Shown here in pieces: positions 6,017 to 14,200 of a stretch of DNA of 64,000 nucleotides (its first letter is position 1; each line of letters opens with the position of its first letter). The stretch is from Patescibacteria group bacterium (lineage in GTDB: Bacteria; Patescibacteriota; Patescibacteriia; UBA10025; JAHIVO01). The position numbers were made by a program, and so were the translations under genes. The notes under the pieces were generated by a model. It was not told where the DNA came from. It saw only the letters and a program-made list of their open reading frames with translations, and searched no databases. The stretch is from contig JBMOKY010000001.1 of the NCBI GenBank assembly GCA_049325535.1, positions 749,942 through 813,941 on the forward strand. Direction: 5' to 3'.

Positions 6017-7078
6017 TTACTTGTTTTTTGGGACGAGCCACCAATAGCAGCCCGACAGATAATAGTGGCAGAGCTCCCCGGCCACTTTCGGCAGGTACTC
6101 CGGTTTTTTCAGCCGGATAGTGATAACGGCGTTTTCCTCCAGATACACGCCCTGATCCCCCACCCACTCGACCAGATACTTCTGGCCATAGGTGGAGAAG
6201 TAGAATTCCTGACCACCGGCAGTGATCGAGAATTCTTTATCCGTTGGTTTCGGATCCTTCCGCAATCGGTCGAATCCGATCACGCGGTACCACCCGGCGG
6301 GATTTCGTAACTGAACGGTCGCACTATAGTGCTCCCAATCAATTTCCCAGCAGGCCGTATCGCAGAACGCGTCCACCGGGACATAGATCGTGATAGTCAC
6401 CGTATCGACTATCGGCACGTAAATGGTGTCCGGCGGCAAATACAACGTATCTGTCTCATGGACAAATACGGTATCGTGTACCACGTACGGTACAAGTACC
6501 GTGTCGATCACGATAATCGTGTCGAAGACATGGGTAGTGTCGTGCGCCCACTGCCAGACAGTATCACCCGGCAGAAACACGATGACGGTATCATGGATAT
6601 ACATGGGTACAAACGTAGTGTCGATCAGCGTAACCGTATCGACCACTACCACTGTCACGGTGTCCGGCGGTACAGTAACCGTAATCGTGTCGGGAGGCAA
6701 TACCACCGTATCCGGGGGCAAATAGACGCTGTCCAGCGGCACGCACTGCATGGCCACGAGGACAGAATCACGCGCTCCGGCAGCGTCCTGGACATATGCC
6801 CAAAACGGATATCGGCCGACTTCGGTAGGGACAAATGTCGCCGCCAGCTTTTCACTGACCGTTTCATGGCCGTATTTCCATACGGTCTGGTAGGGGGCTT
6901 TTCCGCCCTCCGGCTGCATGTACAGCCCGACGCCATACCCCACCGGAATAGTGTCCGGCAAAGCAAAGGCGCGAAGCTGCAGTGGCGTCGCCGTCGGTGC
7001 GGTCGGCAGTTTCTCGGCACAGCTGACGATGATAATCGCCAGTACGGCAATCACGAGTACGGCATACATGCGCTTCAC
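6017..7078 (-). CDS. Repeat-containing lipoprotein (tandem PPDTVTV / DTV repeats)
   Basis: Signal peptide plus lipobox (VSCAE). The central region is built from about 15 degenerate DTV(x)V/PPDT repeats, visible as a DNA tandem repeat at about 6400-6750. No enzymatic motif. Confidence 0.6.
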   Translation of the reverse strand: MKRMYAVLVIAVLAIIIVSCAEKLPTAPTATPLQLRAFALPDTIPVGYGVGLYMQPEGGKAPYQTVWKYGHETVSEKLAATFVPTEVGRYPFWAYVQDAAGARDSVLVAMQCVPLDSVYLPPDTVVLPPDTITVTVPPDTVTVVVVDTVTLIDTTFVPMYIHDTVIVFLPGDTVWQWAHDTTHVFDTIIVIDTVLVPYVVHDTVFVHETDTLYLPPDTIYVPIVDTVTITIYVPVDAFCDTACWEIDWEHYSATVQLRNPAGWYRVIGFDRLRKDPKPTDKEFSITAGGQEFYFSTYGQKYLVEWVGDQGVYLEENAVITIRLKKPEYLPKVAGELCHYYLSGCYWWLVPKNK

Positions 7079-8049
7079 TGGTCACCTCCTTTGACGGCGG
7101 TGAAGAGCGAAACCCCGAGATAGACCCCGTGGTCCCAGTCGACACGATCGACGCCTCGGACGGAAATTTCCGCCAGGGCGTATTTCGCGGTGACGCCGAG
7201 ATGTCGGTAGACATAGCGCAATCCGAATGTCGGACCCTCGCGCTTCTCGGCATAGCGACCGTATGCGGTCGCATACGCCTCAAACCGCTGCCAGCCGACG
7301 AGCGCGTCCCAATGATGATTGAGCCACGGACGCCAGGCGAGTCCGACGTGCACATACCGGTAGTGAAGCTTCAGTTTTTCCTGAAAAGTCCGATCGTGCC
7401 GATACAGGGAATGACCGCCTTCAGCTTCAAAGCGCAAGCGGTCGTTCCCGAGCTGACCAAAAACGAACGGCACAAATTCCTCGCCGACATATGCCAGTCC
7501 GAGCCCGAGCCAGGCATTTGAGATGATGCGGTGGTGCGGTGTCGTATCACACACATAGACTGTGTCAGGCTCCGACACATCAGCCACTGCTCCGTGTTCC
7601 AGTCCAGAGACGCTCGCCGCCATCAGACGGATAGTCACATACCGTCGGACGGTACCCGTATCGTTCTCCACGGCCGTCGCGGTACTGTAGACTCTGGCCA
7701 TGTCGGCACCGTATAACTCCAGAATCGTGGAACCCGTGACGTTTCGTTCCTCCGAAACAACCACATTGTTCTTGATGTGGTTTGCGCGATAGCGGACGCC
7801 GTCGGCGTTGCTCTTCACGCTGATCAGCAGTGACTGATTTGCATTGAACCGATCGACGATCCGCCGGATGTCCGCATCTTGCCCCTGCATGATGCGATCG
7901 AGCGCCCCCATACCTTCGTTCCGACCGAAAGTGACCGTCACCGAATCGATGGCGGAGAACTCGATCATGGGAGAATCGGCTCTGGCCGGCTCCGGACTGA
8001 TCAATGTGATGATGCACAACATACCGACGGCGCATGCCAAACGTTTCAT
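7075..8049 (-). CDS. Secreted hypothetical protein, beta-rich C-terminal half
   Basis: N-terminal signal peptide (cleavage near ARA-DS). 4-bp overlap (ATGA) with the downstream lipoprotein gene suggests an operon. Confidence 0.55.
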   Translation of the reverse strand: MKRLACAVGMLCIITLISPEPARADSPMIEFSAIDSVTVTFGRNEGMGALDRIMQGQDADIRRIVDRFNANQSLLISVKSNADGVRYRANHIKNNVVVSEERNVTGSTILELYGADMARVYSTATAVENDTGTVRRYVTIRLMAASVSGLEHGAVADVSEPDTVYVCDTTPHHRIISNAWLGLGLAYVGEEFVPFVFGQLGNDRLRFEAEGGHSLYRHDRTFQEKLKLHYRYVHVGLAWRPWLNHHWDALVGWQRFEAYATAYGRYAEKREGPTFGLRYVYRHLGVTAKYALAEISVRGVDRVDWDHGVYLGVSLFTAVKGGDQ

Positions 8050-10065: not shown

Positions 10066-10093
10066 TATAAAAAACCCTCGCCTTCAAGCGAGG
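10066..10093 (-). terminator. Terminator for HD-domain gene (CCTCGC-cttcaa-GCGAGG + GUUUUUUAUA)
   Basis: Seen in sequence. Confidence 0.6.
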
Positions 10094-10104
10094 AACGATA
10101 GCGA

Positions 10105-10695
10105 CTACTCCAATCCCAGTGCTTGATTTGTTTCCCGATACACTCGGCTCAGCTCCTCTGGCAGCGGACCATCCAGTTTGGCATTGACCAGATCCACCAC
10201 CTGTCCGTGGAACCACTGCCGGCGCGCGATTGGCGCATTGAATTTCTGGAAAATATCCTGGCCATGGCGCTGGTAAGCATCCACCATGGAAATCATGTTG
10301 TGCAGTTTATCGGCGGCTACGATCATCAGCGCATCGGGACTGGCTTTGCGCAGGTGATTGATGAAATGGGACTTGCGTACCTCCCAGGTAGCGCGCTCAT
10401 CGGCCTGGCTCATATTGGGAATTTTTTCCGGTTCACTGACCTGCAGCACCAGACTGGCCACCCGCTTACCAAAATCACGGGCCATATCCGCGGATGAATA
10501 CCCGGCGACGTCTTCGATCACATCATGCAGTATGGTCGCCACGATGATATCCTCGTCCTGAGTGTGCTGGGAGATGATAAACGCAGCCGCATACGGATGA
10601 GTCACATACGGGATGTCGTCTGTTTTTCGCCGCTGTCCTTCGTGGAGCCGGGCAGCGGTCATAAACGCGCGATGGAGACGGAGGGTGAATTGCAT
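10105..10695 (-). CDS. HD-domain (p)ppGpp hydrolase-like protein (RelA/SpoT-type HD domain, small alarmone hydrolase-like)
   Basis: Motifs HEGQRRK…PYVTHP…LHDVIEDV are typical of the RelA/SpoT HD hydrolase domain. Start placed at the internal ATG (MQFTLRL), because the listed start at 10764 would overlap the upstream terminator. Confidence 0.65.
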   Translation of the reverse strand: MQFTLRLHRAFMTAARLHEGQRRKTDDIPYVTHPYAAAFIISQHTQDEDIIVATILHDVIEDVAGYSSADMARDFGKRVASLVLQVSEPEKIPNMSQADERATWEVRKSHFINHLRKASPDALMIVAADKLHNMISMVDAYQRHGQDIFQKFNAPIARRQWFHGQVVDLVNAKLDGPLPEELSRVYRETNQALGLE

Positions 10696-10723
10696 GCTCT
10701 CAGTATACGACGCTTTGGAAAAT

Positions 10724-10762
10724 AAAAAAAGTGGCGCCTCTGCATATTGCATAACGCGCCAC
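10724..10762 (-). terminator. Strong Rho-independent terminator ending the radical-SAM operon (GTGGCGC-18 nt loop-GCGCCAC + U7)
   Basis: 7 bp GC stem plus inner palindrome. Lies 24 nt downstream of the small peptide stop codon. Confidence 0.7.
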
Positions 10763-10785
10763 ACTAGAAATTCGAGACCGGCGAC

Positions 10786-10881
10786 TTACTGCTTCGTGGC
10801 ACTTTTGGGCGGATTGCCCGGCTTCGTGACGACGACCTTAGTCACCTTCTTGCCGTCCAAGACGGCTTTACACTTGCTCAT
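10786..10881 (-). CDS. 31-aa Lys-rich peptide MSKCKAVLDGKKVTKVVVTKPGNPPKSATKQ; candidate RiPP precursor/substrate, translationally coupled to the upstream radical-SAM gene
   Basis: ATG overlaps the TGA of the 10878..12353 gene (ATGA). A perfect AAGGAGGTGA SD lies 4-13 nt upstream. Terminator lies immediately downstream. The peptide is below the ORF-track size cutoff. Confidence 0.5.
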   Translation of the reverse strand: MSKCKAVLDGKKVTKVVVTKPGNPPKSATKQ

Positions 10882-12353
10882 GCCTTCACCTCCTTCAAAG
10901 AGCTGATGTTATTGTTCCCATCGGGGAACGTCGCGAGATCCTGTACCCTGCGGTACGTCTCGATTATTCGAGCATACAATTCCGGATTGATTCTGTCTAG
11001 TACCTGCAGCGCCCGACGCCGGAACTCATCGAGCATACCGGACCGCTCCAGGAAGCGAATGATCAGGCAATCGTGATGAATAGCCCAGATCAATTTCCCG
11101 TTGTCTTGCTCCTCAAACCCGATCGGATAGAGGCGGCAGGAAAAGGGGCGATCAGTATATACTCGGCACCGGCGCGGTTGCAGCGAACAAAGCTGGCTGC
11201 ACAGCGGTGACGGGACGGACACGTCGATGGATCCATCCGGCTTTTCCGGAAAAGAATGGATGTAATGGGCAGCATCGTTGACTGTAATGGTTTCGACGCC
11301 GCTTTCCTGCATCCGAGCCAATTCCTCGGGCATCAGCCAGACGTATCCCTGGCAGCATTTGTCCGTGCAGGTCCGGCATACCTCGGCAAACGGCGCGTAC
11401 AACGCGTCGAACGCCTGGTTGCATTCGTCCAATGATCGGATTTCCGGTTCCGGCGGGACCAGCGGACACCGAACCGGATGATTGACGATCAGTGTCACGT
11501 TCGGACTGGCCAGCACACGGTAGGAACACATGCTGTCCGCGCACCTGCCAACCAGATCGGTCTGTAACAGTTCATCCAGTGGCCGCTCCAGGATATGCCC
11601 CAGTGCGGCGCTGTGCGCGTGCTGCACCTGCTCACTGCAGAGGAACACCTGACCGTCAGAGCGCAGATATACAGCCGTACCGTCGGCCCAGCAACCGTCC
11701 GGTTCCCACGCAAGCGTTTCGCCGAAGTGTTCCTGCGCCGCACCGCTCACCCGGGTGACCAGTTCCTGACGCTGCACCTCAGACAGTCCGAGCCACGGCC
11801 AGAGCCGCGCCGCCCGTCCCGCCAGCGACACTTCGTTGATATGCAATCGCAGTCCGCGCTGATGCGCGTACGCAATGATATCATCAATGTCGCTCAGGGT
11901 CCGACGAATGACCGTCGTGTACACTGTCACCGGCACGCGATGAATGATTGCCCAATCGATCACTTTGACCACCTGGGAGTACGTCTGTCCGCCACGCACT
12001 GAATCATGCACCCGCGCCGTGGTCCCATCGAGACTGATTCCCATGGGTATATCGTACGACGCCAGGGTTCTGACATCCAATTCGGTTATCAGTGTGGCAT
12101 TGGTGATGACCGCTTGGGCGAGACCGATGGCGGCCGCTCGTTTCACTAGGGAAAAGAAATCCCGGCGTACGAACGGATCTCCTCCGGTCCAGCAGATGCG
12201 GCTCACGCCAGCAGCGAATAGGTGATCGATGACGGTATACGCTTCGACGGTCGTCAGCTCACCGACGCGGGGTAAACCGGAACACTGCACACAATGTGGG
12301 CAATGTAGATTACACCCATTGGTGACTTCCCAGTGGACATCACCTACCGGCAT
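10878..12353 (-). CDS. Radical SAM/SPASM-domain protein with C-terminal CxxCxxxCC (YkgJ/FliB-like, PF03692-type) domain
   Basis: CNLHCPHC (CxxxCxxC) radical-SAM motif and a SPASM/twitch-like Cys region (C…G.VFLC, GHILERPLDEL). The C-terminal CRTCTDKCC…C…C segment resembles the zinc/iron-chelating YkgJ/FliB domain. Start set at the ATG with a GGAGGTG SD (MPVGDVHW). Confidence 0.8.
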   Translation of the reverse strand: MPVGDVHWEVTNGCNLHCPHCVQCSGLPRVGELTTVEAYTVIDHLFAAGVSRICWTGGDPFVRRDFFSLVKRAAAIGLAQAVITNATLITELDVRTLASYDIPMGISLDGTTARVHDSVRGGQTYSQVVKVIDWAIIHRVPVTVYTTVIRRTLSDIDDIIAYAHQRGLRLHINEVSLAGRAARLWPWLGLSEVQRQELVTRVSGAAQEHFGETLAWEPDGCWADGTAVYLRSDGQVFLCSEQVQHAHSAALGHILERPLDELLQTDLVGRCADSMCSYRVLASPNVTLIVNHPVRCPLVPPEPEIRSLDECNQAFDALYAPFAEVCRTCTDKCCQGYVWLMPEELARMQESGVETITVNDAAHYIHSFPEKPDGSIDVSVPSPLCSQLCSLQPRRCRVYTDRPFSCRLYPIGFEEQDNGKLIWAIHHDCLIIRFLERSGMLDEFRRRALQVLDRINPELYARIIETYRRVQDLATFPDGNNNISSLKEVKA

Positions 12354-13695
12354 AGGCCACCTCCGATTCATCGAGCGCGCCTGCCAGAATAAACTGGGTC
12401 AGCGCGCAGCGAATCTCGAGTTCCGCGATGTCGGGAAACCGGGAAATAACCGATTGCTCGGTCGTAAGCCCCTCGTCGATGATGGCGCGCAGCACTTCCA
12501 GCGCGCCGTCGTTGAGGGTGACCGTCTGATACCGGGTCACCAGGAACTTTTCCGGATGACGGTCCAGTACCTTGGTATACCGATTGACGGTAAACTGCCG
12601 ATACGCATCGGGCACCTCAATCGACGGTTCCGGCCGTATCACGTTCGATACGTCGATGGGCGGTTTGGTCAGGCCGCGTACCGCATAATCGATGCAAAAT
12701 CGATCACTGCAGTTCGCGTCGACCTTACAACCACAGACGCATTCGCTCAGAAGCGGACATGAACGGCACGGTTCATCGACCCAGGACAGATCCCGAAAAA
12801 CACCCAGCGACCGTTTCCGCCAGATCACCTCGATCGGCTCGTCCAGCACATTGCCGAAGACCAGTTGGGACTGGTTGCACAGCCGGAAATCGCCCATCGG
12901 ATTGACCGCGCAAAACGTACTCCCGACGCCGCAATTGGACGTCATGCCCTCGCGCAGCAGCCGTTCATCGATGCAGTACGGTATAGCCGTGCCAAATCCG
13001 ACGCGGCCCCCGAGTGACGGAAAATCGTCACGAGCACGCAGCATCTGCGTCACTGCATCGCGAAACTGCTCCACGGTCGGTTTGAGCCGGGGGTCACTCG
13101 CGGAATGCTGGGCGCCGATACCGCCGTCCTCATACCGGTCGACGAATACCGACTCCATGCCGTGTTCCACGGCAACGCAGATGATATCGTAGATCTGGTG
13201 GGCATTGTACCCCGTCAAAACCGGGATGCACCGGACATCATGGCCGGCACCGACATAGTAATCGATCGAGCGAAGCGCCTGATCGAAACTACGCGGACGC
13301 TGGGTGATGAAATCATGGGCAGCCGCGGTCGCCCCGTGAATCGGAACGCCGAAACAGGCCAGACGGCAAGAAATGCCGCGCAGGGTGATGCGCCCATTGG
13401 TGACGATAGTCACCGACGAGTGGTCGCTCAAAAGCTCGATGTACTCATTGAGCTTGGCAACGCCCAGGAGACTCGGCTCACCGCCGATGAGATACACGTG
13501 CGGAATGTGGCTTGTGGACACTGACCGCACGATGCGATCGACCAGTTCCAGATTTGGCGGCTGGTCACGCAACGGATTGTAGCAGAAAATACAATCCGAA
13601 TTGCATTGGTACGTCAGCTCGATGTGGCACAGGTGCGGCACCGAATCATGCGGTACACACGCCAGTCCACATCCGGCGCAATTTTCTCTGTCCAT
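12340..13695 (-). CDS. Radical SAM/SPASM-domain protein with N-terminal extra Cys cluster and C-terminal PqqD-like (RiPP-recognition-element-like) segment
   Basis: CNSDCIFC radical-SAM motif and a full SPASM motif (CGVGSTFC…GNVLDEPIEVIW…CRSCPLLSECVCGC). A C-terminal segment of about 90 aa (LNDGALEVLRAIIDEGLTTEQ…) resembles PqqD/RRE. AGGAG SD before the ATG. Confidence 0.8.
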   Translation of the reverse strand: MDRENCAGCGLACVPHDSVPHLCHIELTYQCNSDCIFCYNPLRDQPPNLELVDRIVRSVSTSHIPHVYLIGGEPSLLGVAKLNEYIELLSDHSSVTIVTNGRITLRGISCRLACFGVPIHGATAAAHDFITQRPRSFDQALRSIDYYVGAGHDVRCIPVLTGYNAHQIYDIICVAVEHGMESVFVDRYEDGGIGAQHSASDPRLKPTVEQFRDAVTQMLRARDDFPSLGGRVGFGTAIPYCIDERLLREGMTSNCGVGSTFCAVNPMGDFRLCNQSQLVFGNVLDEPIEVIWRKRSLGVFRDLSWVDEPCRSCPLLSECVCGCKVDANCSDRFCIDYAVRGLTKPPIDVSNVIRPEPSIEVPDAYRQFTVNRYTKVLDRHPEKFLVTRYQTVTLNDGALEVLRAIIDEGLTTEQSVISRFPDIAELEIRCALTQFILAGALDESEVAYAGR

Positions 13696-13771: not shown

Positions 13772-14080
13772 CTACCCCGTGACTCCGTGCGACGAGATAC
13801 GAATAATTTCGTCCATGTCGTCCTCCGGCGCGGCCTTGTTTTTTCGTACATGACCGCACGTTTGACAACGCTGGACGATAACGAAATCGCCGCGTTTTTG
13901 CTCGATCGAGATCGGCTCCATCATGCCGAGACACTCGGCCTGACGGTCACCCGGATTGACGTCGACATGCTTCGACCACAAACACTTCGGACAGTGGTTG
14001 GTATACCCCGTACCGACGACTTCATGGCCACAATGTTCGCACGTAAAATCCTCGATCGTGCGGGTGAATTGTTTGGTCAT
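13772..14080 (-). CDS. RNHCP-domain zinc-ribbon protein
   Basis: Literal TNHCPKC motif plus flanking CxxC pairs (CEHCGH…CPKC…CQTCGH). First gene of the radical-SAM operon. GGAGGT SD lies upstream. Confidence 0.65.
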   Translation of the reverse strand: MTKQFTRTIEDFTCEHCGHEVVGTGYTNHCPKCLWSKHVDVNPGDRQAECLGMMEPISIEQKRGDFVIVQRCQTCGHVRKNKAAPEDDMDEIIRISSHGVTG

Positions 14081-14200
14081 TTGTTCGATTAAACCTCCGT
14101 ATTTCTCATTGTACTAAATTGTCAATGAGCTTCATAGTATATGCATATGGCTCACCATTGTCAAGCCCGCTTCCACCCGGAGGAAAATATGGAGCGGCAT

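Follow-up and report, generated by a model that had tools for sequence, protein, structure and literature searches.

The window, the 64,000-nt stretch of patescibacterial DNA analysed here, carries a compact run of genes on its minus strand, on which all features described below lie. A promoter-like site (TTGACA-17-TATACT, 11 of 12 matches in a consensus scan only; 14136..14164) just upstream of the first gene likely marks the start of an operon. This first gene encodes a 102-aa RNHCP zinc-ribbon protein (13772..14080; PF12647, 107 bits) and is followed by that of a 451-aa radical-SAM/SPASM enzyme, rSAM1 (12340..13695; Radical_SAM, 46.6 bits), whose coding sequence shares its last 14 nt with the next gene. 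That next gene is the ORF singled out by an earlier note on this DNA. The ORF listing of the window gives it as 10878-12371, encoding 497 aa; homologue starts match Met7 of this version, at position 12353, and we refer to the gene as 10878-12353 while keeping the residue numbers of the 497-aa version. Finally, a gene for a 31-aa peptide, MSKCKAVLDGKKVTKVVVTKPGNPPKSATKQ (10786..10881), begins with an ATG that overlaps the TGA of the flagged ORF (ATGA).

These genes form a conserved cassette. Its unit comprises four to five genes, namely the RNHCP protein, rSAM1, a YkgJ-like PF03692 domain (YkgJL) and the peptide, arranged in the order RNHCP, rSAM1, YkgJL (optionally preceded by and fused to a second radical-SAM enzyme, rSAM2) and peptide, and it is kept in almost all of the loci with a cassette, roughly 55 in number, that were recovered from genomes and metagenomes. 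The hosts are Patescibacteria, DPANN and other archaea, and Mollicutes-like Firmicutes from among gut bacteria. We found no description of the cassette in the literature on RNHCP, PF03692/YkgJ/DUF3109, CPR radical-SAM RiPPs or the peptide sequence, and no curated model covering it; it is previously undescribed.

rSAM1 and RNHCP are the universal core of the cassette. Almost all loci whose flank is long enough have an RNHCP gene directly upstream of the rSAM1 homologue (51–94% identity). Homologues of rSAM1 itself exceed 400 in number, and over 120 of them, archaeal ones included, reach at least 54% identity. For a SPASM domain we required a full-length match and the seven-Cys pattern of two auxiliary clusters, of which CX2CX5CX3C is a part; rSAM1 qualifies on this basis, with a 33.4-bit match over model positions 1–67 of 67. 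Its C-terminal extension has no Pfam match, and a profile of that extension gives only non-significant winged-helix matches in the PDB (E 0.5). By contrast, rSAM2 is an optional accessory, present in about a quarter of the family clusters. That the radical-SAM half of the flagged ORF is optional, with a universal core elsewhere, was absent from the earlier note.

The flagged ORF reads as a radical-SAM core and a twitch-like region followed by a separate YkgJ/FliB-type Cys-cluster domain, so that the earlier description of a radical-SAM/SPASM enzyme fused to such a domain holds for the radical-SAM and PF03692 parts but not for a full SPASM domain. The N-terminal half, rSAM2 (11460..12353), matches Radical_SAM PF04055 over residues 15–167 (81.6 bits versus a cut-off of 29.5, Pfam search of the whole protein), and its CX3CX2C cluster motif (C20-X3-C24-X2-C27; 12291-12314) is kept in every full-length homologue, the lone exception being N-terminally truncated. 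The SPASM match (PF13186 / TIGR04085) is partial and below threshold (19.9 versus 21.5 bits, model positions 1–46 of 67), the CX2CX5CX3C motif was not found in the ORF, and the auxiliary region has just four invariant Cys (227, 245, 282 and 302; 11466-11693), all of which point to a twitch-like region with a single auxiliary cluster.

The solved protein closest to rSAM2 is SkfB (PDB 6EFN), the thioether-forming sporulation-killing-factor sactisynthase (phmmer 6.6e-14, Foldseek 4.8e-16, about 305 aligned columns). Both combine a radical-SAM core with a single-cluster twitch domain, and SkfB acts on a small Cys-containing peptide; however, the two share only 24% identity, and SkfB carries a recognition domain at its N terminus but lacks a PF03692 domain. 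The radical-SAM motif of rSAM2 begins at residue 20, which leaves no room for an N-terminal domain. Scores against the sactisynthase models (score/cut-off: SkfB TIGR04403, 63/300; AlbA NF012164, 60/850; StsB NF045574, 107/625 bits) place rSAM2, as far as profiles can tell, outside the sactisynthases at equivalog level. The AF2 model of the flagged protein has a mean pLDDT of 83.

The C-terminal half, YkgJL (residues 305–497; 10881..11459), is, on profile and Cys-conservation evidence, an independent domain of the CxxCxxCC/YkgJ superfamily PF03692. The earlier note had named the right family but allotted it 120 aa; the domain spans about 190 aa (residues ~305–497). PF03692 matches residues 332–418 of the whole protein (11118-11378; 26.7 bits, cut-off 23, E 9e-6) and scores 28.9 bits on the isolated C-terminal 190 aa, and it is the top match for all six stand-alone homologues tested (15.5–24.1 bits). 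The forward score is only about 4–6 bits over the cut-off, as might occur had the match arisen by chance and were the Cys-rich region the auxiliary Fe–S part of an ordinary SPASM/twitch domain, the assignment that the earlier note had named as fatal to its proposal. Several lines of evidence refute this assignment and leave it practically no chance.

First, the twitch-like region stops at Cys302, and the C-terminal domain is a separate gene in most family clusters, free-standing at about 190 aa in 63 of 90. Second, a reverse search with the YkgJL family profile against 1.84 billion representatives retrieves PF03692 proteins: all ten proteins sampled from its weak tail belong to the family (25–59 bits). 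Third, hhalign aligns YkgJL with bona fide PF03692 proteins at 99.7% probability (E 1.7e-26, 161 columns, taking in the C.IY..RP..CRL[FY]P signature), and this result and the free-standing genes therefore assign the region to PF03692, not to SPASM/twitch. Fourth, solved radical-SAM structures align over at most about 332 columns (SkfB about 305), leaving the C-terminal ~190 residues unmatched.

The conserved residues of YkgJL agree with this assignment. About eight Cys are conserved (332, 335, 340, 391, 395, 402, 412 and 435), and the domain shows both the family signature and an N-terminal Cys motif. The window clade has CX2CX3CC at this place and the other clades have CX2CX3DC, so the spacing is one residue longer than in canonical CxxCxxCC; C391/C395, C402, C412 and C435 align with the later Cys of the PF03692 family. 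The motifs quoted in the earlier note (CRTCTDKCC, CSQLC and CRVYTDRPFSCRLYP) are all present, with Cys that are invariant or nearly so in 17–19 homologues. Many non-Cys residues are also invariant, including W345, the IHSFP motif, R408, P409, Y415, H432 and D434, and the domain carries a helical C-terminal extension. No solved relative of YkgJL was found by sequence or by fold, and model confidence is low in the Cys-rich loops (pLDDT < 50 at residues 380–401).

PF03692 is a large, widespread family (E. coli YkgJ and others), most of whose members, to our knowledge, have no known function; the only characterised members of the superfamily that we know of are FliB and DpdM. FliB is a SAM-dependent enzyme that methylates the Lys epsilon-N of flagellin in Salmonella, and DpdM N-methylates the aminomethyl group of preQ1. 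FliB binds a [4Fe-4S] cluster on a CX4CX3CC motif, converts SAM to SAH and contains 8 conserved Cys (PMC8598068), and DpdM, a YkgJ/DUF3109 homologue with a CxxxCxxCC motif and two predicted four-Cys pockets, N-methylates a primary amine (bioRxiv 10.1101/2023.04.13.536721).

YkgJL resembles both without belonging to either. With FliB (PF03692; NF038110) it shares the superfamily, an N-terminal CxnCxnCC-type motif, about 8 conserved Cys and a genetically linked substrate with essential-looking lysines. However, FliB is about 370–400 aa long, with CX4CX3CC, whereas YkgJL has about 190 aa and CX2CX3[C/D]C; FliB works without a radical-SAM partner, on a folded protein of 50 kDa, whereas YkgJL is always paired with radical-SAM enzymes and a 21–60-aa peptide. 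The FliB equivalog NF038110 (cut-off 85 bits) gave no match at E ≤ 1 with three YkgJL family members, whereas a generic PF03692 protein scores 22.7 bits, so that a generic PF03692 protein is at least as close to FliB as YkgJL, which, on these profiles, is not a FliB orthologue. With DpdM, a phage dPreQ1 N-methyltransferase (DUF3109/PF11307), the likeness lies in the superfamily, the predicted pair of four-Cys metal pockets and primary-amine methylation; its substrate is instead a modified DNA base, and DUF3109/PF11307 matches on the YkgJL family stay below the 33.5-bit cut-off (of seven proteins, two score, at 12.7 and 18.4 bits).

The Lys-rich ORF that the earlier note had placed beside the enzyme turned out to be widely conserved. 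It has 47 distinct homologues of 21–60 aa (the shortest, of 21 aa, from a Theionarchaea locus), which share MSKC...LD..K[IV]..I.V.K and the consensus MSKCKAVLD[GS]xK[IV]TxIxVKxK; the conserved part is the 21-mer MSKCKAVLDSKKIKEIKVKKK. All 47 peptides have Ser2, Lys3, Cys4 and Lys12, and 46 have Asp9. Entropy is concentrated at third codon positions (0.69, 0.45 and 1.34 for the three positions), and the ORF is accordingly a real gene under protein-level purifying selection. Its Shine-Dalgarno sequence, AAGGAGGTGA (10886..10895), lies within the last codons (LKEV) of the enzyme gene, and a purine-rich Shine-Dalgarno-like stretch precedes all 18 peptide starts checked (AGGAGG in most, weaker variants in a few); with the start–stop overlap, this arrangement couples the peptide gene translationally to YkgJL. 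The lysine content stressed by the earlier note (8 of 31 residues, 26%) is correct but uninformative, given that the tail rich in Lys varies; the telling feature is the invariance of Lys3 and Lys12 together with Ser2 and Cys4. A programmed frameshift joining enzyme and peptide was considered and rejected: the overlaps at four loci are 4, 8, 14 and 32 nt, in two different frames, and each of the 18 listed starts has its own start codon besides the Shine-Dalgarno-like stretch.

Gene fusions connect all parts of the cassette. As the earlier note had asked, we looked for the rSAM2–YkgJL fusion in other genomes, and 21 clusters carry it; our literature and NCBIfam searches returned no paper or curated model that describes it. 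YkgJL is also fused to rSAM1 (P0032, P0074, P0105, P0198, L019 and L021) and, in frame, to the peptide (the cluster representatives P0161, P0168, P0171, P0177 and P0180, and L022), and RNHCP is fused to the rSAM1 N terminus in P0122/L069. The occurrence of YkgJL in free form, in fusions and with other partners is a pattern that non-catalytic recognition domains of peptide-maturation systems typically show as well.

On this basis we tentatively favour, at somewhat short of even confidence, a reading in which the flagged ORF is a two-module maturase within a conserved peptide-modification cassette. The peptide MSKCKAVLD[GS]xK[IV]TxIxVKxK would be the common substrate, rSAM1 would perform the universal radical step, and the RNHCP protein would act as the peptide-docking domain of rSAM1. 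No version of the cassette is without YkgJL, even where rSAM2 is missing (as in the 63 stand-alone clusters), and for this reason we regard YkgJL as itself a metal-cluster enzyme with catalytic activity. By analogy with FliB and DpdM, it would most likely transfer methyl groups to Lys3 and/or Lys12; such lysine-directed chemistry, as the earlier note had suspected, is plausible because both lysines are invariant and the characterised relatives N-methylate primary amines. The SkfB-like rSAM2 would add an accessory radical step, probably abstracting hydrogen next to Cys4, in the Ala6–Val7 segment, with an outcome such as a thioether cross-link or epimerisation. At loci with rSAM2, Ala6 and Val7 each occur in 30 of 31 peptides, versus 4 of 10 and 5 of 10, respectively, at loci without it (Fisher p 3e-4 and 2e-3, uncorrected for phylogeny).

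YkgJL might instead be non-catalytic, a metal-cluster docking domain that replaces the RiPP recognition element or an electron relay, with all peptide chemistry left to the radical-SAM enzymes; it would hand the peptide, or electrons, to the radical-SAM enzyme that is its fusion or separate partner. Neither of these enzymes has an N-terminal recognition domain like those of SkfB, CteB and SuiB: the SkfB alignment with the flagged protein begins at SkfB residue 113, and Pfam shows no PqqD-like recognition element in either. Further, the domain occurs free or fused to rSAM1, rSAM2 or the peptide, as recognition domains typically do, and the translationally coupled peptide gene always directly follows it. 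However, the position and fusion pattern of an rSAM1 docking domain are already filled by RNHCP, the eight or so Cys and the other invariant residues of YkgJL exceed what a docking surface needs, and both characterised superfamily members are enzymes. We regard a docking or relay role as a possibility of some weight, though a doubtful one.

That the peptide is the substrate may also be questioned. The enzymes could act on, for example, the RNHCP protein, tRNA/rRNA or a metabolite, with the Lys-rich peptide as a structural subunit or a nucleic-acid-binding accessory, and its basic tail could bind RNA. The first 21 residues are conserved from Met1 across bacteria and archaea, which is unusual for a natural-product precursor, and rSAM1 is conserved like a housekeeping enzyme (54–82% identity). 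We found no conserved protease, peptidase, oxidase or exporter/transporter in the cassette flanks, and the cassette is therefore not a textbook leader/core system. Against such an accessory role, precursors are classically encoded in just this way, by a short, conserved, co-oriented ORF beside radical-SAM/SPASM relatives of PqqE, MftC and SkfB; two loci (L003/L004) hold a second, identical peptide copy after an accessory B12-radical-SAM gene, and another (L023) holds two divergent tandem copies, a substrate-like duplication and divergence. We judge it distinctly unlikely that the peptide is not the substrate. SCIFF, the ranthipeptide precursor of Clostridia matured by CteB, offers a parallel, being a short, unusually conserved peptide beside a radical-SAM maturase, wide in anaerobes and free of obvious export or immunity genes; it differs in having six Cys and a C-terminal core, whereas the cassette peptide has one invariant Cys, at position 4, and N-terminal conservation, and in lacking the two to three radical-SAM enzymes and the RNHCP and PF03692 partners of the cassette.

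The extreme conservation of the peptide, the lack of export genes and the metabolically minimal hosts would also suit synthesis of a redox cofactor like PQQ or mycofactocin, in which a cross-linked Ser-Lys-Cys (with Asp9 or Lys12) would be cut out of the peptide and the PF03692 domain would serve as a tailoring enzyme. Among NCBIfam models, both radical-SAM enzymes find their best partial matches in MftC and PqqE; the closest solved protein to rSAM1 is PqqE (E 3.9e-9), and the small partner of such enzymes is sometimes fused N-terminally, as RNHCP is in P0122/L069. By contrast, the scores fall far below the equivalog cut-offs (116 versus 265 and 54 versus 381 bits), RNHCP is a zinc ribbon and not a PqqD fold, and the cassette has no conserved downstream tailoring genes comparable to PqqB/C/F or MftD/E/F. 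We consider this kind of cofactor synthesis very unlikely.

Neither FliB, which acts on a flagellar filament protein, nor DpdM, which acts on phage DNA, has a substrate that is easy to handle. In the cassette a PF03692 domain is genetically, and in some versions covalently, joined to a peptide of 21 residues, four of them invariant, which offers a simple assay that could settle how these Cys-cluster enzymes work. The cassette is among the few peptide-maturation systems common to Patescibacteria, DPANN and other archaea, and Mollicutes-like gut bacteria; rSAM1 and the peptide, the latter almost unchanged between bacteria and archaea, are conserved in the manner of a core function and not of a variable natural product, which makes the cassette a candidate lineage-spanning trait of reduced-genome symbionts. 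A bolder version, which we think improbable, holds that the product is one conserved modified peptide or peptide-derived cofactor, bearing N-methyl-lysine and a Cys4-derived cross-link, with a housekeeping role in these ultra-small, host-dependent prokaryotes, and that the PF03692 domain represents a new class of Fe–S-dependent peptide lysine N-methyltransferases. This would be the first general biochemical function for the YkgJ/YcgN/YeiW superfamily.

Other contexts for the cassette found no support. An anti-phage defence system was rejected: PADLOC gives only partial pVip radical-SAM-core matches, in the N-terminal half (24–52 bits), and none for the RNHCP, peptide or HD proteins. A phage-borne origin was likewise rejected, IMG/VR holding no relatives. 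A word-indexed protein search returned 16 relatives with the full-length flagged protein and none with the C-terminal domain alone, a result that we read as a limit of the index and replaced by the exhaustive profile search. Downstream of the peptide gene, the window encodes a 219-aa HD_4 (RelA/SpoT-type HD) protein (10105..10764; PF13328, 80 bits), followed by a terminator-like hairpin and T-run (10075..10094, consensus scan only) that likely marks the end of the operon. The HD_4 gene lies beside the cassette only in the window and in a 99%-identical contig (L070), and we therefore do not count it as a cassette part; in the window genome it is apparently co-transcribed with the cassette.

The enzyme gene lies on the minus strand, where the ORF listing of the window gives 10878-12371 (497 aa). 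Because 16 of 16 full-length homologues begin at the position of Met7 of this ORF, its true start is almost certainly 12353, the coordinate of the earlier note, which had described a radical-SAM/SPASM enzyme fused to a C-terminal CxxCxxCC-type module of 120 aa. The radical-SAM part of that description is borne out (Radical_SAM, residues 15-167, Pfam 81.6 bits), with C20, C24 and C27, invariant among homologues, as its cluster, but a full SPASM domain is not. The SPASM match at residues 227-272 is partial (model positions 1-46 of 67) and sub-threshold (19.9 versus 21.5 bits), the equally invariant C227, C245, C282 and C302 make up one auxiliary cluster, and the ORF lacks a CX2CX5CX3C motif, so the auxiliary region is of the twitch type. 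Among solved proteins, the sactisynthase SkfB is nearest to the N-terminal ~305 residues, hereafter rSAM2 (phmmer 6.6e-14; Foldseek 4.8e-16), and SuiB, anSME, MoaA and CteB come next; no solved structure matching the ORF aligned past about 332 columns. The C-terminal module was correctly recognized (PF03692, residues 332-418, 26.7 bits versus a cut-off of 23) but spans ~190 residues rather than 120, with invariant C332, C335, C340, C391, C395, C402, C412 and C435.

Four independent lines of evidence concur that this C-terminal, YkgJ-like domain is a PF03692 domain. First, PF03692 is the top Pfam match of the isolated domain (28.9 bits) and of six free-standing homologues (15.5-24.1 bits). Second, an exhaustive search of 1.84 billion representative proteins using a domain profile built on alignment A3 returned 287 proteins, including 87 at E<=1e-10, and 10 of 10 proteins sampled from its weak tail were bona fide PF03692 members (25-59 bits). 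Third, hhalign of the family (A2) against these generic PF03692 proteins (A4) gave 99.7% probability (E 1.7e-26, 161 columns), bringing into register both the CxxCxxCC motif and the C.IY..RP..CRL[FY]P signature as well as the late Cys. Fourth, the domain occurs as a separate gene: many loci have no rSAM2 and encode the domain on its own, in an ORF of about 190-200 aa (L015-L017, L020, L022, L023, L071, L080, L087 and L092). The opposing reading considered in the earlier note, that the Cys-rich region is a mere Fe-S part of a SPASM/twitch domain unrelated to PF03692, is excluded; the reading as a SPASM domain alone is refuted.

We also rejected a FliB orthologue, as the NF038110 model does not match the domain at E<=1, whereas it gives a generic PF03692 protein 22.7 bits. 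The DUF3109/DpdM match stays sub-threshold, and neither sequence nor fold searches found a solved relative of the domain. Among the proteins retrieved with the A3 profile, P0286 (345 aa) carries, fused to its generic PF03692 domain, a SAM methyltransferase domain of class I (Methyltransf_24, 84 bits), an independent link from the superfamily to methyl transfer. The nearest generic outgroup, the stand-alone proteins P0232 and P0234, has very Lys/Arg-rich C-terminal tails (for example, KEKLKRKLKEKKKKDKKEKEKHKKE) that recall the fusions of the YkgJ-like domain to the peptide described below.

In the window, the gene sits in a minus-strand cassette: an RNHCP zinc-ribbon protein (13772-14080; PF12647, 107 bits), a downstream radical-SAM/SPASM enzyme, rSAM1 (12340-13695), the rSAM2-YkgJ-like fusion and, after it, a 31-aa ORF encoding the peptide (10786-10881), with a promoter-like site upstream and a terminator-like hairpin downstream. 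A small stand-alone gene for a RelA/SpoT-type HD_4 hydrolase (10105-10764, minus strand) begins 22 nt past the peptide stop and has the same apparent terminator; it is not conserved, adjoining the cassette only here and in a 99%-identical metagenome contig, L070. Looking up exact proteins and scanning genomes and metagenomes yielded ~55 cassette-bearing loci, nearly all of which keep the order RNHCP, rSAM1, optional rSAM2, YkgJ-like domain, peptide; the layout is rearranged in L012, L098, L102 and the Theionarchaea locus L067. Identity to the window across loci ranks rSAM1 first (56-81%), then RNHCP (51-94%), the YkgJ-like domain (32-68%) and rSAM2 (24-59%).

Across the YkgJ-like family (90 representative clusters), the domain stands alone in 63, is fused to rSAM2 as in the window in 21 and to rSAM1 in 1, and its reading frame runs on into the peptide in 5 (P0161, P0168, P0171, P0177 and P0180). 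Further rSAM1 fusions occur in P0032, P0074, P0105/L021 and L019, domain and peptide are likewise fused in frame in L022, and RNHCP is joined to the N-terminus of rSAM1 in P0122/L069. These fusions bind all four components together as one functional unit, and they show that the rSAM2 fusion flagged in the earlier note is one arrangement among several rather than the system's core.

A B12-binding radical-SAM protein of ~440 aa, absent from the window, is a recurrent accessory (L003 2514-4014, minus strand; L004; L069 4746-6059; L091; L067 1-1070; L072; 37-65% identity between loci); in L003 and L004 a second, identical peptide gene follows it. The 11.3-kb contig L067 carries an enlarged archaeal cassette, with a 21-aa minimal peptide upstream of rSAM1, two more radical-SAM/SPASM genes, the B12-radical-SAM gene, a PEMT-family methyltransferase, and the YkgJ-like domain twice, once in a radical-SAM fusion and once as a separate gene standing alone; gene calling gave no RNHCP gene there.

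The window peptide's ATG overlaps the TGA of the enzyme gene (ATGA), and its start is preceded by AAGGAGGTGA within the enzyme's last codons, LKEV. A purine-rich Shine-Dalgarno-like stretch, mostly AGGAGG, precedes 18 of 18 distinct peptide starts examined, and its position inside those codons accounts for the L[KQ]EV ending of the enzyme family. Across 47 distinct peptides of 21-60 aa, Met1, Ser2, Lys3, Cys4 and Lys12 are invariant (47/47), Asp9 is replaced once, by Glu (46/47), and Leu8 (44/47), Val18 (44/47), Lys21 (43/47) and Lys5 (41/47) come next; past residue ~21 the peptide is variable and often Lys- or Gln-rich. In the Theionarchaea locus, the entire gene is the 21-residue conserved part, MSKCKAVLDSKKIKEIKVKKK. 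Entropy at codon positions 1, 2 and 3 (0.69, 0.45 and 1.34) and the use of both TCN and AGY codons for Ser2 show that selection acts on protein rather than on an RNA element. Peptide conservation is about equal in Firmicutes bacterium CAG:822 and Acholeplasmataceae, where the enzyme is only 28% identical. The peptide ORF is a genuine gene, and selection on it is strong. The 26% lysine content emphasized in the earlier note comes partly from the variable tail and is a poor clue; judged by conservation, the informative lysines are Lys3 and Lys12. In L023 (5536-5900), two divergent peptide genes, MSKCKSSLDQNKVKEIKIQKK... and MSKCLPILDAEKIKELKVVRK...., lie in tandem behind a stand-alone YkgJ-like gene.

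The identities of the domains, their synteny and fusions, the translational coupling and the conservation of the peptide are established; from them we infer a mechanism in which the peptide would be the common substrate of the cassette enzymes. It occupies the classic precursor place beside PqqE-, MftC- and SkfB-related enzymes, is duplicated after the B12-radical-SAM gene or in divergent tandem copies, and in several lineages forms a single protein with the YkgJ-like domain; that it is not the substrate is improbable, and a PQQ- or mycofactocin-like cofactor as the cassette product seems more improbable still. rSAM1 would be the enzyme of the universal radical step. RNHCP may be a peptide-docking protein; it sits, at times fused, exactly where SkfB-type enzymes have their recognition domain.

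Retention of the YkgJ-like domain both with and without rSAM2 suggests that it has its own role. To our knowledge, only two members of the PF03692 superfamily, FliB and DpdM, have been characterized, and both methylate primary amines. FliB has eight conserved Cys and, with SAM and a [4Fe-4S] cluster carried by its Cys motif, methylates the Lys epsilon-N (PMC8598068); DpdM, a YkgJ/DUF3109 homologue with a CxxxCxxCC motif and, by prediction, two four-Cys pockets, acts on dPreQ1, whose aminomethyl group it N-methylates (10.1101/2023.04.13.536721). By analogy, the module may N-methylate the invariant Lys3 and/or Lys12. The main rival, a non-catalytic docking or electron-relay domain, is somewhat less probable: occurrence free, fused or re-fused is usual for recognition domains, and none is recognisable in rSAM1 or rSAM2. 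Alongside the proposed N-methylation, rSAM2 could install a Cys4 thioether or an epimerisation in the Ala6/Val7 segment, in keeping with its relatives. Of the 31 peptides whose loci carry rSAM2, 30 conserve Ala6 and 30 conserve Val7, but where rSAM2 is missing the counts are only 4/10 and 5/10, respectively (p 3e-4 and 2e-3, uncorrected for phylogeny), which suggests that the fused SkfB-like module acts at the segment beside Cys4.

Cassette hosts are labelled as Patescibacteria (Kerfeld-, Pace-, Taylor-, Magasanik- and Sungbacteria, Minisyncoccia and bins labelled Saccharibacteria), Woesearchaeota, Theionarchaea, Firmicutes CAG:822 and Acholeplasmataceae; some few labels are probably mis-binned. 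The closest genome is a Candidatus Kerfeldbacteria (RNHCP 94%, rSAM1 81% and the fusion 63% identical), and rSAM1 has >400 relatives at E<=1e-10. No cassette relatives were found in viral contigs, and defence-system models matched nothing but the generic radical-SAM core. Maturation of peptides by radical-SAM enzymes is a familiar process; a PF03692 domain as partner or fused module, RNHCP as a partner and this peptide family are not known to have been described. Neither the peptide nor the YkgJ-like domain has an NCBIfam match, both radical-SAM enzymes fall far under every NCBIfam equivalog cut-off, and a literature search found neither the peptide sequence nor a description of a radical-SAM/PF03692 system.

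Past its SPASM domain, rSAM1 ends in a conserved ~115-residue extension (FLVTRYQTV.L...A.E......); its pattern of helices recalls a winged-helix recognition element, with no significant Pfam or PDB-profile support (E 0.5). Elsewhere, ARAGORN found no tRNA or tmRNA in the 64-kb window, and all Rfam families stayed below their gathering scores there. Two neighbouring minus-strand ORFs at 6017-8049, overlapping by 4 nt and without a Pfam match, encode a 353-aa protein with repeated PPDT[VI]/DTV motifs after a lipoprotein-like N-terminus and a 324-aa protein with a signal-like N-terminus. GC skew is below 0 in almost all 2-kb bins of the window.
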